10,762 nucleotides of DNA from Patescibacteria group bacterium (GTDB taxonomy: Bacteria; Patescibacteriota; Minisyncoccia; GWA2-38-13b), in assembly GCA_038065195.1 (NCBI GenBank), contig JBBTRL010000046.1, forward strand, positions 1 to 10,762. The letters run 5' to 3'. Under the pieces are notes generated by a model. That model did no database searches, was not told where the DNA came from, and saw only the letters and a list, made by a program, of their open reading frames with translations. The translations under genes and the position numbers were made by a program. Of this stretch, positions 6,239-10,762 are shown one piece after another. Within the stretch, counting starts at the first letter, position 1. Every line of letters starts with the position of its first letter.

Positions 6239-6251
6239 TATTATGTAAAGT

Positions 6252-6325
6252 GGGTATGTAGCTCAGCTGGTTAGAGCACGGCCCTTATAAGGCCGGGGTC
6301 CTTGGTTCAAATCCAAGCATACCCA
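6252..6325 (+). tRNA. tRNA-Ile with anticodon UAU (AUA-decoding)
   Basis: A 74-nt cloverleaf. The acceptor stem GGGTATG pairs with CATACCC, the D-arm is GCTC-AGCTGGTTA-GAGC (Ile-like body), and the anticodon stem/loop is CGGCC-CTTATAA-GGCCG with TAT at positions 34-36. The T-arm is CTTGG-TTCAAAT-CCAAG with discriminator A. CCA is not encoded. Confidence 0.85.
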
Positions 6326-6350
6326 TAGATGCAATCCCAACGCGTTCACT

Positions 6351-6509: not shown

Positions 6510-6541
6510 CAAATCGATTCCACCACCAAATCGATTCCACC
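6510..6541. repeat. Two tandem copies of a 15-nt direct repeat (CAAATCGATTCCACC) separated by 2 nt
   Basis: Copy 1 at 6510-6524 and copy 2 at 6527-6541 are exact. A short palindrome CCTATCAATAGG lies at 6494-6505. The repeat sits in the leader region of the minus-strand tRNA-Leu. Confidence 0.5.
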
Positions 6542-6568
6542 TAATAAAATTAAACCTTATTTTAAATT

Positions 6569-6603
6569 AAAAATCAACCGGCCAAATCGGCAAGTTGATT
6601 TTT
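6569..6603. terminator. Terminator hairpin downstream of the last pilin-like gene on the minus strand
   Basis: The stem AAAAATCAAC / GTTGATTTTT (10 bp) has an inner GCC..GGC sub-stem. On the minus strand it is followed by a T-run, 20 nt after the stop of the 6623-6955 gene. Confidence 0.45.
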
Positions 6604-6622
6604 AATATTCAATGCTATCATT

Positions 6623-6955
6623 TTATAATCCGGAGACATCAATACCCAAAAACGAAGGAAGAACCTGCATCACAATAATCCACGCCAAAAATACAATCGC
6701 GACACCGGCAACCGTGTATATTATTGTAGACAAAGCCTTTTTTCTCGTCTCGTCATTTCCACCAGAAGTCATCCATTGAATGCCGGCAACAATTAAAAAC
6801 ACAACTGCCAATATAACGGCAAAGGCAAAAAACCAATTCATAGCCGTCTTAAAAAGAGCATATATCTCATCCAAATCGCCCACATTAGATTCGGTTGGCG
6901 GTTCAATCGGCTGAGCGTAAACTGTATTTATTATATTTGATAAAAAATTCAACAT
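6623..6955 (-). CDS. VirB2/TrbC-like T4SS-pilin-family small membrane protein (paralog 6, 110 aa)
   Basis: The core is NWFFAFAVILAVVFLIVAGIQWMTSGGNDETRKKALSTIIYTVAGVAIVFLAWIIV: two hydrophobic helices around a GGND..KK loop. The N-terminus is short and uncharged (MLNFLSNIINTVYAQP). The start is ATG, and an in-frame stop lies 9 nt upstream. Confidence 0.65.
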   Translation of the reverse strand: MLNFLSNIINTVYAQPIEPPTESNVGDLDEIYALFKTAMNWFFAFAVILAVVFLIVAGIQWMTSGGNDETRKKALSTIIYTVAGVAIVFLAWIIVMQVLPSFLGIDVSGL

Positions 6956-6966
6956 AAATAAACTTT

Positions 6967-7027
6967 AAAAGAAAATGACGGCGTCAAAACGAAAGTATTC
7001 CCGACGCTTTTACGCTCATTTTCTTTT
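6967..7027. other. Large imperfect palindrome in the 152-bp spacer between pilin paralogs 5 and 6
   Basis: The outer arms AAAAGAAAATGA (6967-6978) and TCATTTTCTTTT (7016-7027) are exact reverse complements. An inner stem GCGTC/GACGC and a GACGGCGTC palindrome lie between them. Confidence 0.45.
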
Positions 7028-7107
7028 GTTTATCTCCGCGCCTTTCCGTAAAATAAATATTTACAGCAAAGTGCGAAAATTCATTAAACGACCTTTAGAT
7101 AACTTTA

Positions 7108-7521
7108 TTATAAACTTATTTCATTTAATATATCACAAAAACTCGTACCGAACAAACCCAAAATCAAATCAAGCAAACCGGAGGCAAGACCGCCCGATTC
7201 TATATCTAATTCTCCTATCCCCAAAAATTTAGGTATAATCTGCTCAACTATTATCCTGGAAGCAAAAATAACCATTACACCGACTGCGGTAAAATATAAT
7301 TTATTTAATGCCGTTTTTTTTGTATCAACATTACCTCCGGCAGTCATCATGCTAATTCCAATAGAAATTGTATAAATAATAGCTACCACTATGGAAAAAG
7401 CAAAAAACCAATTCAATATTTTCAAAAAAAGACAATAAAGAACACCTACGGTGGGAACCGCCCCAATCGCGCCTATTCCGCTTTGCGCCCAAGCAGATTT
7501 AATAAAAAAATTTAATATCAA
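7108..7521 (-). CDS. VirB2/TrbC-like T4SS-pilin-family small membrane protein (paralog 5, 137 aa)
   Basis: The core is LNWFFAFSIVVAIIYTISIGISMMTAGGNVDTKKTALNKLYFTAVGVMVIFASRIIV. It begins at a TTG at 7519-7521, because the only in-frame ATG lies deep inside and a stop lies 15 nt upstream. Its N-terminus (M)ILNFFIKSAWAQ parallels that of paralog 6. Confidence 0.6.
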   Translation of the reverse strand: MILNFFIKSAWAQSGIGAIGAVPTVGVLYCLFLKILNWFFAFSIVVAIIYTISIGISMMTAGGNVDTKKTALNKLYFTAVGVMVIFASRIIVEQIIPKFLGIGELDIESGGLASGLLDLILGLFGTSFCDILNEISL

Positions 7522-7554
7522 GATCGTAATTGATTCTTATAATTTAAATTAACA

Positions 7555-8037
7555 TTAAATACCTGCGCCCATACGTGAAAAAATATTTCCAAGCAAACTC
7601 GCCCACCATACCACCTCGCATTTTACAGCGTAAATCGGTAATATAATCGCCTCAAAACCTGCCGTAAATACGCCCAAAAACATCGCAATCATTATTAAAA
7701 TAGATGTGGAAAGCAAAACTATGACAATTCCCACGAAAATCCATGATAAATTCTTATGAACGGTTGAAAGCGTTTGCGGATCTCCGGAAGCAAATATATA
7801 ACGAAGTCCGTTTATAATTAATAATATTATCGCAATCACAAGCGCAAAACTAAAAAGCCATGTCATAAGACGCAAAAATATGCAATAAACTACTCCTGTC
7901 GTAGAATCTATTCCTGGGGTATTTTTCAGCAACTCATCAAGATCCAATTCTTCCGCCAGCGCAAAAGCATAAAAACTAAAAAATAGCGTAAAAAATATTA
8001 TAGTATACTTTATAAATACAATTCCCTTATAAAACAT
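7555..8037 (-). CDS. VirB2/TrbC-like T4SS-pilin-family membrane protein (paralog 4, 160 aa) with an extra C-terminal hydrophobic extension
   Basis: It has a Sec-type signal peptide (MFYKGIVFIKYTIIFFTLFFSFYAFALA|EE). The core is LMTWLFSFALVIAIILLIINGLRYIFASGDPQTLSTVHKNLSWIFVGIVIVLL, followed by about 45 additional hydrophobic residues. The start is ATG. Confidence 0.6.
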   Translation of the reverse strand: MFYKGIVFIKYTIIFFTLFFSFYAFALAEELDLDELLKNTPGIDSTTGVVYCIFLRLMTWLFSFALVIAIILLIINGLRYIFASGDPQTLSTVHKNLSWIFVGIVIVLLSTSILIMIAMFLGVFTAGFEAIILPIYAVKCEVVWWASLLGNIFSRMGAGI

Positions 8038-8048
8038 AATAAATTTTT

Positions 8049-8519
8049 TTACGATCCGCTAACTTCTAAAATACTCCTGATAAAAGCGATGATGCTTGAA
8101 GAATTGATTAAAGCCTCCTCCGGCACCTCCAAAATACTCCTAACAAAAGCGATAATACCGCGACCAATCAATAAGACCGCAACGCCGACTATCAGCCAAA
8201 TCAACGCTGTTTTCGCTTTTCCAATTTGCGCGTCACCACCGCCGGCTGCAAAAAATAAAACACCAATATAAATCGTTAAAATTATGGCAAGCACAATCGC
8301 TACGGAATAGAAATATCTGGCAACCCTTTGCAAAATAGCCACCACATCATCCAATGTTAAATCAATGCCCTTGACGCCTTGTTCAGAATCTAGATCGTCA
8401 GTAGAAGTGCTGGTAGTCGCCTGAATCGGCGCGGCAAAAAATATACTCGCCACGAACAAACCGATAAAAAACAAAGCGCCAAATCGTAAAATATTTTTAT
8501 GCAATATTTGTTTTTTCAT
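8049..8519 (-). CDS. VirB2/TrbC-like T4SS-pilin-family membrane protein (paralog 3, 156 aa), recent duplicate of paralog 2 with an internally duplicated C-terminus
   Basis: It has a signal peptide (MKKQILHKNILRFGALFFIGLFVASIFFAAPIQA|TT). The core is YFYSVAIVLAIILTIYIGVLFFAAGGGDAQIGKAKTALIWLIVGVAVLLIG. The C-terminus reads IIAFVRSILEV-PEEALINSSS-IIAFIRSILEV, arising from a 63-nt tandem duplication (8065-8093 and 8128-8156, 25/29 identical). Confidence 0.7.
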   Translation of the reverse strand: MKKQILHKNILRFGALFFIGLFVASIFFAAPIQATTSTSTDDLDSEQGVKGIDLTLDDVVAILQRVARYFYSVAIVLAIILTIYIGVLFFAAGGGDAQIGKAKTALIWLIVGVAVLLIGRGIIAFVRSILEVPEEALINSSSIIAFIRSILEVSGS

Positions 8520-8595
8520 TTTAATTTATTAATAAATACCTTAAATAACGAAGCTTATTTCGTAATTTAAAATAAATAATTAAATCTTCTTTTAT

Positions 8596-9000
8596 CTATT
8601 CCACGCTCAACATATCTTTTATAAGAGTTATAAACCCCTGACCAATCAATAGAACCGCAACGCCGATCATCAGCCAAATAAATGTTTTTCTCGCTTTTGC
8701 GACTTGTTGATCGTTGCCACCAGCCGTAAAAAATAAAATGGAAGTGTAGATTACCATAATTGGAATCAGCGCAATGGCTATGTAATAAAAATAGTCAGCA
8801 ACTCTTTCCACAATATCTATTATTTCATCCGTTTCTAACGGATTGGGATATTCAATTGTAGTGCTACTGGCAACGATGCCAGTAGTGGTCGCCAAAACAG
8901 GCGCGACGAAAAATACGCTCGTTGCAAAAAATAATATGAAAAGTGAAACACCCAATCGTAAAATAATTTTCAATGATTTTTTTAAATTTTTACTCCCCAT
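8596..9000 (-). CDS. VirB2/TrbC-like T4SS-pilin-family membrane protein (paralog 2, 134 aa)
   Basis: It has a signal peptide (MGSKNLKKSLKIILRLGVSLFILFFATSVFFVAPVLA|TT). The core is YFYYIAIALIPIMVIYTSILFFTAGGNDQQVAKARKTFIWLMIGVAVLLIG. It shares about 85% nucleotide identity with paralog 3 over the core, for example 8639-8700 against 8161-8222. Confidence 0.7.
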   Translation of the reverse strand: MGSKNLKKSLKIILRLGVSLFILFFATSVFFVAPVLATTTGIVASSTTIEYPNPLETDEIIDIVERVADYFYYIAIALIPIMVIYTSILFFTAGGNDQQVAKARKTFIWLMIGVAVLLIGQGFITLIKDMLSVE

Positions 9001-9050
9001 AAAATAATTATACTCTATAAATCAATAAAATAATACAAAGACGACGATAT

Positions 9051-9464
9051 CTAACACTTGACCTTATACCATGGCCATGGAAATCCCGCCGGTTGATCGG
9101 CGCCGGAACCAGTCATCATTAATAAAATGGAATCTACAAGCAACCACGCTCCATAAATAATCAATGCGCCCATAACCACGCCGTATAAAATACTTTTCGC
9201 CCAAGCAAGTTGTTTCTCGCTGCCGCCTGAAGTGAAAAAAAGAATCCCGCTCGTAACTATAAGTAAAGCTGCCAACGGCGTAACTAAATCAATAATAATA
9301 AAATCAATTATTCCCTTTGACATAACAAAAAAATCGCATGTCGTGCAATCCGCCTCTCCTTCGCCACCACACGGAACCAAACCCGCCGCATTGGATGCCA
9401 ATGGCAAAAACACAAACAATACTGCCATAAACAATAATATAAATTGATATATTGATACTCTCAA
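9051..9464 (-). CDS. VirB2/TrbC-like T4SS-pilin-family membrane protein with an N-terminal Cys motif (paralog 1, 137 aa)
   Basis: After a Sec-like signal peptide (MRVSIYQFILLFMAVLFVFLPLASNA|AG) comes GLVPCGGEGEADCTTCDFF, the Cys-containing motif I associate with the CPR T4SS-pilin family. The core is LIVTSGILFFTSGGSEKQLAWAKSILYGVVMGALIIYGAWLLV and the C-terminus ends in ...YKVKC. The start is a TTG at 9462-9464, 14 nt after the stop of the SBP gene. An alternative ATG at 9426-9428 would leave no signal peptide n-region. Confidence 0.65.
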   Translation of the reverse strand: MRVSIYQFILLFMAVLFVFLPLASNAAGLVPCGGEGEADCTTCDFFVMSKGIIDFIIIDLVTPLAALLIVTSGILFFTSGGSEKQLAWAKSILYGVVMGALIIYGAWLLVDSILLMMTGSGADQPAGFPWPWYKVKC

Positions 9465-9478
9465 GTTTTTAATTTTTA

Positions 9479-10762
9479 TTATTTCCTATATAACACATTT
9501 ATCTGGTTTGCCGATTTTTCTATTGTCTGCCTAATTGTGGATTGCCCAAAAACAATTGATTCTATCATATCGGCAAATATTTTTTCAATTGCAACATTGT
9601 CAATCTGATACCAAGACTTAGCTGTAAGCGATTGCAACGCAAAAACCCCCAAGTGCGCCTTATCTTTTTGCGAATTAACTAAATCCCTTCTGGCCGTCGG
9701 TCTTTTTGACGCCTCCAAATATTTCAACGCATTATCTTTTAAGGCCATAAACTGAATAAAATGCCATGCCCATCCGGGATTTTTAGAATTTACAAAAACG
9801 GTTGGCGCCCAATAACCGGCATAAGAAATATTATTAGCGCTGCCGACGATTTGCGGAATCGCCGCAACACCGAAATTAAGATATGGCGCTTTATTTTTAA
9901 TAGTATCAATGTGATGAGAATAATTTATCATCATCGCGGTCTTGCCTTGGTAGAACGCGTCTATGGAATAATCCATTTCAGAATTCCATGTATAAACTTC
10001 TTTCTGAGGATTGGCAAAGTCCGTATAAAACCTCAATGCCTCTTCGCCTGCCGCGAACGGCTGACCATCTAAGGAAACAAATTTATCAAATATGACTCTA
10101 TTGCTTTGCGGATCAGTCATTTGCGTACCGGTCTGCATCATTAGAAGTCCAAGAATATCCGTGGAACGATTTATGTTTTTTGCCATACCAATGGCCGCGC
10201 CAGCCCTGACGATATTTCCGAAATCGTCTTTCTTGGTTAAAATTTTTACATCTTTAACGAAATCATCCCATGTTAACGGCGGTTCCGCTATGCCACTACT
10301 CTGAAAAATATCTTTATTCCAATATAAAGCCAATGTGTCCACAAAAAGAGGCAAACCGTAAATCTGATCGCCGACTACCAAATCCCGAAACGCCACATCA
10401 ACAAACGAATCCTTGAAGTTTTGAATTGTCATCATTGTTGGAGATAATGGAACGATCTTGTCTTTGTGTTTCGGAAGCCATGTATTATTAATACTCCAAA
10501 TATCCGGTCCCTTGCCGGCGGCAAAAGCGCTGATTAAATCTTTTTCATAATCTTCAAATGCCTTTTTAACATAAGTAATGGTTACTAACGGATACAAACG
10601 CTGATATTCCTTTATGATATCGGTAAAATAATTACCATTATCGTAAACACTCCAAAATTCCAAATCAATTTTTTTTGTTGACTTGGGTTTCTTGATGCCG
10701 AATACAATAGCAAAGACAACGATCAAAACAACCACGAAAACTACTCCTAAAAATATTATCCG
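9479..10762 (-). CDS. Extracellular solute-binding protein (ABC-type, family 1 / MalE-like), membrane-anchored; 5' end runs off the window edge
   Basis: The ORF stays open to the window end. The in-frame upstream codons encode RIIFLGVVF ahead of the listed GTG. An N-terminal transmembrane anchor is followed by KKPKSTKKIDLEFWSVYD. GKGPDIW and aromatic-rich periplasmic-binding-protein signatures appear throughout. The stop is at 9479-9481. Confidence 0.7.
   Translation of the reverse strand, partial: RIIFLGVVFVVVLIVVFAIVFGIKKPKSTKKIDLEFWSVYDNGNYFTDIIKEYQRLYPLVTITYVKKAFEDYEKDLISAFAAGKGPDIWSINNTWLPKHKDKIVPLSPTMMTIQNFKDSFVDVAFRDLVVGDQIYGLPLFVDTLALYWNKDIFQSSGIAEPPLTWDDFVKDVKILTKKDDFGNIVRAGAAIGMAKNINRSTDILGLLMMQTGTQMTDPQSNRVIFDKFVSLDGQPFAAGEEALRFYTDFANPQKEVYTWNSEMDYSIDAFYQGKTAMMINYSHHIDTIKNKAPYLNFGVAAIPQIVGSANNISYAGYWAPTVFVNSKNPGWAWHFIQFMALKDNALKYLEASKRPTARRDLVNSQKDKAHLGVFALQSLTAKSWYQIDNVAIEKIFADMIESIVFGQSTIRQTIEKSANQINVLYRK

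Follow-up and report, generated by a model that had tools for sequence, protein, structure and literature searches.

The six-gene array

The window analysed here, a stretch of 10,762 nucleotides (nt) on contig JBBTRL010000046.1 of a Patescibacteria group bacterium (assembly GCA_038065195.1), carries on its minus strand, at 6623-9464, six consecutive open reading frames (ORFs) for small proteins of 110-160 amino acids (aa), which we call pil1 to pil6 (Table 1). Counted from pil1 to pil6, the spacers between them measure 152, 33, 11, 76 and 50 nt. A first-pass annotation made from the sequence alone had described this region as an array of VirB2/TrbC-like pilins of a type IV secretion system (T4SS), and its gene coordinates, protein sizes and spacers agree exactly with the ORFs. 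No Shine-Dalgarno motifs precede the pilin ORFs.

Hydropathy analysis of all six proteins revealed two long hydrophobic segments flanking a short loop, preceded in each case by a leader or signal peptide as had been read from the sequence at the outset. The N-terminal segments of Pil3 to Pil6 are of the classic signal-peptide-like type. Those of Pil1 and Pil2 comprise only 14 and 12 residues, are uncharged, end in VYA and AWA in front of a glutamine, and are kept in the orthologs; these putative leaders are below the length of a canonical Sec signal peptide. Pil1 consists of its leader (…VYA/QP), an acidic N-terminal tail (N-tail), helix 1, the loop SGGNDETRKK and helix 2. An AlphaFold2 (AF2) model places the helices at residues 28-62 and 68-103, with a predicted local distance difference test (pLDDT) value of about 90 in the core. 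Hydropathy and the Pil1 model together give the leader, the two hydrophobic helices and the short loop by which a VirB2/TrbC hairpin is recognized.

The remaining proteins vary this plan. Pil2 has the leader …AWA/QS, the loop AGGNVDTKK, a C-terminal extension, and two cysteines, Cys30 and Cys128, on either side of the hairpin. Pil3 starts with a signal peptide ending in …FALA/EE, has the loop ASGDPQ, contains Cys52 and Cys139, and carries a third hydrophobic segment at its C-terminus. Pil4 combines a signal peptide with an N-tail rich in Thr, Ser and Asp and the loop AGGGDAQIGKAK, and Pil5 a signal peptide with a short N-tail and the loop AGGNDQQVAKARK. Pil6 is made up of a signal peptide (…ASNA/AG), the conserved motif CGGEGEADCTTC, the loop SGGSEKQLAWAK and the C-terminal residues …VKC; its long form, initiated at a TTG codon, is supported because the ortholog in the relative GW2011_GWA2_38_13b begins at the same position. 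The shared G-G-x-[DE] loop motif originally proposed stands as quoted for the other proteins, and only Pil3 departs from it with SGDP. Near-identical pairs, which had also been reported, do not occur among the paralogs: Pil1 and Pil2 are 47% and Pil4 and Pil5 44% identical, and the remaining pairs share 20-36%.

Pilins of type IV pili were considered and rejected as an alternative assignment. The six proteins lack a class III signal peptide with its prepilin peptidase site (of the G/F-T-L-I-E type), possess two hydrophobic helices and have leaders with AXA-type ends, and none of them matches a type IV pilus family in Pfam.

Assignment to the VirB2/TrbC family

All six proteins match Pfam family PF18895 (T4SS_pilin), and four reach its gathering cut-off of 26.6 bits: Pil1 with 49.7 bits (E=4e-13), Pil5 with 31.9 (E=1.4e-7), Pil4 with 29.5 (E=8e-7) and Pil3 with 28.5 (E=1.7e-6). 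Pil2 and Pil6 are tied to the family because of their pairwise similarity to Pil1 and Pil5 (Pil2 versus Pil1, E=2e-26; Pil6 in BLASTP, E=4e-10 versus Pil5 and E=1e-8 versus Pil1). On the TrbC/VirB2 profile PF04956, Pil1 scores 27.3 bits at a cut-off of 27.9.

The family profile was aligned by hhalign with a reference profile built from nine annotated VirB2/TrbC genes of MPF_T conjugative plasmids, all of which are located directly upstream of VirB3 and most of them directly after a gene for a VirB1-type lytic transglycosylase. The alignment (probability 76.4%, E=2.2e-5, score 35.6, 62 columns) brings residues 30-98 of Pil1 into register with residues 55-117 of VirB2, which corresponds to the entire hairpin. 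Reversed profiles gave no score above 12.3; 40 column-shuffled profiles had a mean of 10.0 and a maximum of 15.9, and 40 segment-wise shuffled profiles a mean of 10.9 and a maximum of 17.2. The score obtained with the true profiles thus lies more than 10 standard deviations (SD) above the shuffled and reversed controls and, judged against them, the signal of homology to VirB2/TrbC is real and not an effect of composition, in line with the initial family assignment. Fold-library searches with the hairpin did not discriminate it from unrelated hairpins. A profile search of 1.84 billion representatives (clusters at 50% identity) retrieved 66,175 family members at E≤1e-3.

Conservation across lineages

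Four lineages were compared: the window, the closest named relative, Parcubacteria group bacterium GW2011_GWA2_38_13b (GCA_000992445.2; L005, hereafter the sister genome), and two contigs from Logan, L031 and L032. The sister genome was placed in the class Paceibacteria by Quinonero-Coronel et al. (Microb Genom 2025; PMC12102498), who used PF18895, PF04956 and the pilin profiles of CONJScan to survey 3,035 genomes of Patescibacteria. A Patescibacteria population with a Paceibacteria relative confirms the origin in the Candidate Phyla Radiation that had been surmised from the sequence.

The six pilin genes are present in identical order in all four lineages, downstream of gyrA, a methyltransferase gene and a gene for a solute-binding protein (SBP). 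In the three other lineages the best match of each position is the corresponding window paralog, well ahead of the other five, i.e. orthology is 1:1. Ratios of nonsynonymous to synonymous substitution rates (dN/dS) were computed against the sister genome and are approximate at the prevailing dS of about 1-1.5. They amount to 0.066 for pil1 (ortholog 82-83% identical), 0.087 for pil6 (78%), 0.17 for pil2 (70%), 0.23 for pil3 (66%) and 0.25 for pil4 (56%), with pil2 to pil5 spanning 0.17-0.25 and the flanking genes for FtsH, SBP, Band_7 and PHP proteins 0.06-0.12. Pil1 and pil6 are therefore constrained as strongly as housekeeping genes, pil1 to an extent seen for ftsH or the SBP gene. Since 1:1 orthologs with dN/dS values of 0.07-0.25 exist in three other lineages, sequence comparison indicates that the six genes are real, that the paralogs are old and that each one is maintained.

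These data also bear on a trivial explanation, namely that the array consists of chance hydrophobic ORFs or that the Pfam matches are driven by composition. The ORFs are indeed short, A/T-rich, very hydrophobic and devoid of Shine-Dalgarno motifs, two of the six stay below the Pfam cut-off, and the fold searches were uninformative. Orthologs in four lineages, dN/dS well below 1 at a synonymous divergence of about 1-1.5, a profile-profile score beyond 10 SD of the controls and a family of 66,175 representatives leave this explanation with a negligible probability, and we consider it already refuted.

Variation between lineages is located in the N-tail, between signal peptide and helix 1. The most conspicuous case is Pil5, whose orthologs in the three other lineages (L005:7745-8476, L031:7666-8460 and L032:8638-9387) are 243-264 aa long and include a cysteine-rich module of 110-130 aa with 8-12 cysteines and the motif W-x-W-x-C…C, which belongs to Pfam family DUF4215. 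Window Pil5 is without such a module, and a similar N-terminal cysteine-rich module is present in the Pil3 ortholog of L032 (L032:10001-10696). In VirB2-type pili the termini face outward; on this ground the N-tails may be regarded as plausible exposed sites of decoration.

Cysteines preceding helix 1 and following helix 2 were observed in three of the six pilins, Pil2, Pil3 and Pil6, the last of which has C32, C40, C43 and C137 and retains four cysteines in all lineages. The positions are kept in all three other lineages for Pil3 and Pil6, and in two of three for Pil2, the L032 ortholog having none. Some VirB2/TrbC proteins undergo head-to-tail cyclisation. It is pure speculation that the cysteines of a pair come close in the hairpin and that a disulfide could staple the termini in a manner loosely reminiscent of this cyclisation.

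Single ORFs with several hairpins

The top-ranked members of the family are single ORFs with 2-17 pilin hairpins, which we term poly-pilins; as the ranking favours multi-domain proteins, it says nothing of the share of poly-pilins in the family. They possess one N-terminal signal peptide and no internal ones, and their repeats are on average 28-51% identical. Sizes include 820 aa with 8 hairpins, 552 aa with 6 and 1775 aa with 17. Examples are P0010 (L018:9925-12387), P0011, P0012, P0013 and P0017. P0010, the protein with 8 hairpins, was found on three independent assemblies in an ORF without in-frame stop or TGA codon, and it heads a further pilin array which includes a pilin-PKD fusion. At this and another pilin locus (L018, L033), genes for PKD, LTD and DUF4215 surface proteins follow. 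The accessible part of the text of the 2025 survey makes no mention of poly-pilin fusions (PMC12102498). As predicted proteins, the poly-pilins show that hairpins of divergent sequence are made to lie next to one another.

Variation between strains

Near-identical strains from different Hainich wells (L011, L013 and L014) were compared with the window, to which they are 99.56% identical over 10.7 kb. The 47 differences are distributed unevenly: 23 are in pil5, 10 each in pil1 and the SBP gene, one each in pil3 and the Band_7 gene, two in intergenic regions and none in the genes for FtsH and PHP. Pil5 is the most variable gene, with 11 substitutions and a 12-nt indel which affects 4 aa of the N-tail (residues 42-45). 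Of the 47 differences, 43 cluster in three tracts of 120-170 bp each within the putative SBP-pilin operon, at 6701-6818 (pil1), 8719-8881 (pil5) and 9676-9848 (SBP gene). Synonymous and nonsynonymous changes stand at 8:2 in pil1 and 9:4 in pil5. One well pairs window-type pil1 with variant pil5, which means that the alleles of the two genes reassort. The three tracts look like some three recombination imports, too few for a significant hotspot claim, and judged from the type of substitution the strain differences are not evidence of positive or diversifying selection.

It had been suggested initially that the locus looks like a pilin cassette, which might act in surface variation or in a fibre for host attachment; the former idea resembles the proposal of the 2025 survey that pilin diversity aids adaptation to different host strains (PMC12102498). 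In this model the paralogs would be alternative subunits, differentially expressed or selected to suit host strains or to evade hosts or phages. It draws on the wide divergence of the paralogs (20-47% identity), on the concentration of strain differences in pil5, pil1 and the SBP gene together with the reassortment of pil1 and pil5 alleles between wells, and on the gain and loss of N-terminal cysteine-rich modules between lineages. Yet number, order and 1:1 orthology are fixed in four lineages at dN/dS values of 0.07-0.25, and the comparative check of copy number that the first-pass annotation had suggested thus returned six genes throughout. The polymorphisms are mainly synonymous and confined to three short tracts, no silent or partial cassettes and no gene-conversion repeats were seen, and no pair of paralogs exceeds 47% identity. 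Moreover, fused poly-pilins would be senseless for mutually exclusive variants. Turnover, copy-number change, conversion and positive selection, which characterize antigenic-variation cassettes, are not features of this array, and we consider a variation cassette quite improbable. Rather, 1:1 orthology and purifying selection, together with the poly-pilin fusions, favour paralogs that are not interchangeable and act in one surface assembly.

Genomic context

The array is preceded by the gene for a transmembrane (TM)-anchored SBP. A gap of 14 nt separates the end of this gene from pil6, and gene and array are probably transcribed together; the membrane-anchored solute-binding protein mentioned in the first description was thus correctly recognized. 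No permease or ATPase gene is located near the SBP gene. Its adjacency to the array is kept in five lineages, including L021, a more distant Paceibacteria genome in which genes for Lactamase_B, GyrA, methyltransferase and SBP are followed by pilins. Because the neighbouring gyrA and methyltransferase genes are conserved too, a link between SBP and pilins is inseparable from inherited synteny, and SBP adjacency was absent from the unrelated pilin contexts inspected.

Table 1. Features of the array and of the sequences adjoining it (positions in the window).
Feature	Position	Strand	Description
Terminator-like hairpin and U-run	6560-6600	minus	Downstream of pil1; AAAAAUCAACUUGCCGAUUUGGCCGGUUGAUUUUU then AAUUU
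pil1	6623-6955	minus	110 aa; last gene of the array; best family match
pil2-to-pil1 spacer	6956-7107	minus	152 nt; two hairpins; structured leader
pil2	7108-7521	minus	137 aa; TTG start
pil3	7555-8037	minus	160 aa
pil4	8049-8519	minus	156 aa
pil5	8596-9000	minus	134 aa
pil6	9051-9464	minus	137 aa; TTG start; first gene of the array
SBP gene	9479-10735	minus	TM-anchored; SBP_bac_8 (E=2e-28), SBP_bac_1 (E=5e-27)

At the other end, the hairpin behind pil1 (Table 1) is likely to mark the 3' end of the operon; the segment around it (6540-6625, minus strand, 86 nt) has a folding z-score of -4.6. A second structured region is the spacer in front of pil1, for which folding z-scores of -4.5 in the window and -9.9 in the relative were obtained. 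The U-rich arm of its pil1-proximal hairpin ends right before the start codon. This hairpin 2 is kept in the four lineages (spacers compared: window 6956-7107, L005:9863-10000, L031:9845-10000, L032:11109-11216), with double, i.e. compensatory, changes in 6 of 26 pairs. An Rfam scan assigned the pil1 leader to no family and matched only the three tRNAs of the window. For a putative major pilin, the leader could function in translational control, in attenuation or in stabilisation.

The other ORFs of the window code for FtsH, a 602-aa Band_7/SPFH protein, a PHP/MJ0043_C protein and a 123-aa product without a family match. In the population and in the sister genome alike, the flank on the SBP side reads S1-domain protein, Lactamase_B, EamA, GyrA, methyltransferase and SBP, and that on the other side tRNAs, FtsH, Band_7 and PHP.

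Several observations concern the neighbourhood and the provenance of the window. A tRNA-Ile with anticodon TAT (UAU) at 6251-6326 on the plus strand neighbours tRNA-Leu(TAG) in the stretch that separates ftsH from the array; in most bacteria, AUA is decoded by a lysidine-modified CAU tRNA. The start of FtsH is set shorter by gene callers than the long TTG start. Relative to NCBI contig CAYHYD010000011.1, the window differs at two sites of the Band_7 gene and by a small cluster of indels and mismatches in the intergenic region 826-837, and with nt 1-201 it runs 201 nt past the end of that contig; as it both differs from and outruns it, the window represents another assembly of the same population, which belongs to the Paceibacteria of Hainich groundwater. 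Pil5 is also encoded on a 27.6-kb contig of the metagenome-assembled genome GCA_964360735.1, and contigs of several 0.2-µm samples from Hainich groundwater carry it as well; NCBI labels it as hypothetical protein of 'Patescibacteria group bacterium'.

Where is the secretion machinery?

Unlike typical VirB2/TrbC genes, the six pilin genes are not encoded together with T4SS machinery. Family scans of the window proteins against Pfam and NCBIfam detected no T4SS component and no type IV pilus component. The initial statement that VirB4, VirB6, VirB10, VirD4 and prepilin peptidase are missing from the window holds, the other ORFs being those for FtsH, Band_7, PHP and the 123-aa product, and the inspection of the flanks that it had called for revealed no T4SS genes within about 10 kb and hence no adjacent conjugative T4SS.

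We favour, with somewhat better than even confidence, the view that the locus is a chromosomal operon of six VirB2/TrbC-type pilins which serve a T4SS-like apparatus as non-redundant, co-assembling subunits. Several points weigh against this view. Two of the six proteins score below the PF18895 cut-off (Pil2, 20.6 bits, E=4.8e-4; Pil6, 15.6 bits, E=0.017), and a profile search of PDB sequences retrieved VirB2 only at E=0.37-0.72, amid noise from G-protein-coupled receptors. There is no gene for a T4SS ATPase or channel within about 8-10 kb on either side of the array in the population (L001, L011) or in the sister genome (L005). VirB4 was near none of five independent pilin contexts inspected, among them those of the single-copy homologs P0197, P0199 and P0213 and of poly-pilin P0010, where none was detected within 10 kb. 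The sister genome itself was scored as lacking VirB4 in the 2025 survey (PMC12102498). Finally, three reports propose a T4SS pilus of Patescibacteria without having observed one (PMC12102498, PMC10633639, PMC12857230), for which reason 'pilin' stays a computational label.

The survey table for the sister genome lists one VirB2 (coding sequence (CDS) 777), VirB3 and TrsD side by side (CDS 545-546) and three homologs of type IV coupling proteins, which places VirB3 and TrsD some 230 CDS from VirB2 (PMC12102498). In the accessible part of that table, TrsD adjoins VirB4 in 12 of the 12 genomes with a VirB4 row, and the VirB4 matches of Patescibacteria reach a profile coverage of only 55-61% at a cut-off of 50% (PMC12102498). 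Given this narrow coverage and the usual neighbourhood of TrsD, the missing VirB4 entry of the sister genome may be due to failed detection. Likewise, detection of just one of its six pilin genes means that profile-based surveys undercount arrays. Taken together, this suggests that both arrays and VirB4 were undercounted in the published survey.

Taken at face value, the VirB4-negative score of the sister genome would point to an assembly that does not depend on a T4SS, in which VirB2-descended hairpins act together with the adjacent SBP or with surface adhesins instead of a VirB4 motor, either as a membrane-embedded oligomer that serves as channel or scaffold or as a fibre that a different machine assembles. 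The inspected arrays are far from T4SS genes and lie beside an orphan SBP gene or genes for PKD, LTD and DUF4215 surface proteins, and polyproteins with up to 17 hairpins (about 34 TM helices) resemble polytopic membrane complexes more than pilus monomers. Such a model has to be reconciled with VirB3 and TrsD in the sister genome, where the missing VirB4 is perhaps only overlooked, and with the six pilins of Candidatus Southlakia epibionticum, which are part of an essential T4SS cluster; also, the adjacency to the SBP gene is confounded with inherited synteny and absent in unrelated contexts. We therefore consider T4SS-independent assembly unlikely.

A model for the pilin operon

Starting from six conserved, compactly clustered same-strand genes of one family, with a common hairpin topology and no local machinery, we infer for the preferred T4SS-like apparatus that its pilins assemble into a pilus, depend on a T4SS, are used heteromerically and act in host contact. 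Pil3 to Pil6 would be inserted into the membrane by Sec, and the short-leader, acidic-tailed Pil1 and Pil2 possibly by a YidC-type route. Based on the positive-inside rule, the membrane hairpin is predicted to expose its N- and C-termini to the outside, with the K/R-containing loop in the cytoplasm and later in the lumen. A machine of the VirB4/TrsD/VirB3 type encoded elsewhere would then extract the hairpins and polymerise them; the product would be a heteromeric, pilus-like fibre or conduit where the cell touches its host, and a role of this structure in attachment or as a conduit is plausible. The six paralogs may act as major and as minor or decorating subunits rather than as interchangeable variants, and the exposed N-tails could be the site where lineage-specific cysteine-rich modules are gained and lost.

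The most promising candidate for a major subunit in this model is pil1: no other paralog scores as high in the family or is as short and as constrained, and pil1 has a structured leader to itself and the terminator-like hairpin behind it.

A related possibility is that the six proteins are obligate partners in one heteromeric surface or membrane structure of fixed composition, which in this Paceibacteria clade may be built or used without a canonical VirB4, for example as a conduit for uptake coupled to the orphan SBP. It is prompted by the 1:1 conservation and by the natural fusions of 2-17 hairpins, and we regard it as doubtful. If true, it would be an apparatus derived from VirB2 that differs from every T4SS pilus described so far.

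Comparison with known systems

Among monoderm systems of the MPF_FATA type, the Mbov_0395 family (NCBIfam NF045849, pilin-like conjugal transfer protein of Mycoplasma integrative and conjugative elements (ICEs)) likewise consists of small two-helix pilin-like proteins, and Pil1 to Pil5 match nearly the whole 80-position profile. With 17-31 bits they stay below its cut-off of 40 and so are not members, and the locus has no ICE context.

With VirB2/TrbC of Gram-negative bacteria (VirB2 of Agrobacterium, PDB 8cue and 8exh; TrbC of RP4; PF04956) the locus proteins share the leader, the two hydrophobic helices with a short loop between them, and a …G-I-x-W-M… motif at the end of helix 1, and the A/Q junction of Pil1 and Pil2 is similar to the A-x-A/Q that is invariant in the VirB2 set. 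They differ in a loop which is 7 residues longer and has the form GGN[DE] plus K/R, in the absence of adjacent VirB1 and VirB3, in the presence of six paralogs instead of one gene, and in their monoderm host.

VirB2-family genes have likewise been amplified in tandem and have diverged in the host-dependent bacteria Bartonella and Anaplasma phagocytophilum, whose VirB2 arrays are analogues for antigenic or host-range variation (cited in PMC12102498). By contrast, the paralogs described here are ancient, have 1:1 orthologs, are under purifying selection and show no sign that duplication or conversion continues.

The closest counterparts are found within the phylum. For Patescibacteria, arrays with 2-11 divergent genes for VirB2-like pilins have been published (Wang 2023; Quinonero-Coronel 2025; 2025 FEMS review), and the 2025 survey catalogued 441 of them, distributed over 383 assemblies, with a mean within-array identity of 25% and a maximum of 54% (PMC12102498). 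VirB2-like pilins were present in 1,948 VirB4-containing assemblies and near virB4 in only 1,135 of them (PMC12102498). PF18895 also dominates freshwater-specific clusters and ranks among the most abundant families of freshwater Patescibacteria (AFESM structure-universe preprint). An array in the published sense comprises two or more pilin genes of a Patescibacteria genome that are in tandem or have one gene between them; with six consecutive genes and an internal identity of 20-47%, the locus is such an array, and it shares with the others the families PF18895 and PF04956, the tandem arrangement, the low identity, the phylum and the lack of a relaxase or conjugation context. It differs in belonging to the class Paceibacteria, whereas published arrays are most abundant in Microgenomatia and Saccharimonadia (PMC12102498), and the array of its lineage went uncounted in the survey because one of the six genes and no VirB4 were detected in the sister genome.

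In Candidatus Southlakia epibionticum ML1 an array of likewise six pilins is essential (Wang et al. 2023, Cell, PMC10633639; PMC12857230), so that arrays of this kind, catalogued in number and probed genetically, are by no means as uncharacterised as first stated. The S. epibionticum pilins lie inside an essential T4SS cluster (PMC10633639; PMC12857230), whereas the array described here is detached among housekeeping genes, in the order gyrA, methyltransferase gene, SBP gene, array, tRNAs and ftsH. A pilus-like conduit for signals or for uptake from the host has been put forward as a speculation (PMC12857230). The locus is thus a new example of an already published feature, the VirB2-like pilin array of Patescibacteria, and not a new category. 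It bears on the question why several divergent copies exist: orthology, purifying selection, N-terminal modules and natural fusions favour non-redundant subunits, and one genetically tractable species needs its six-pilin array for epibiotic growth.

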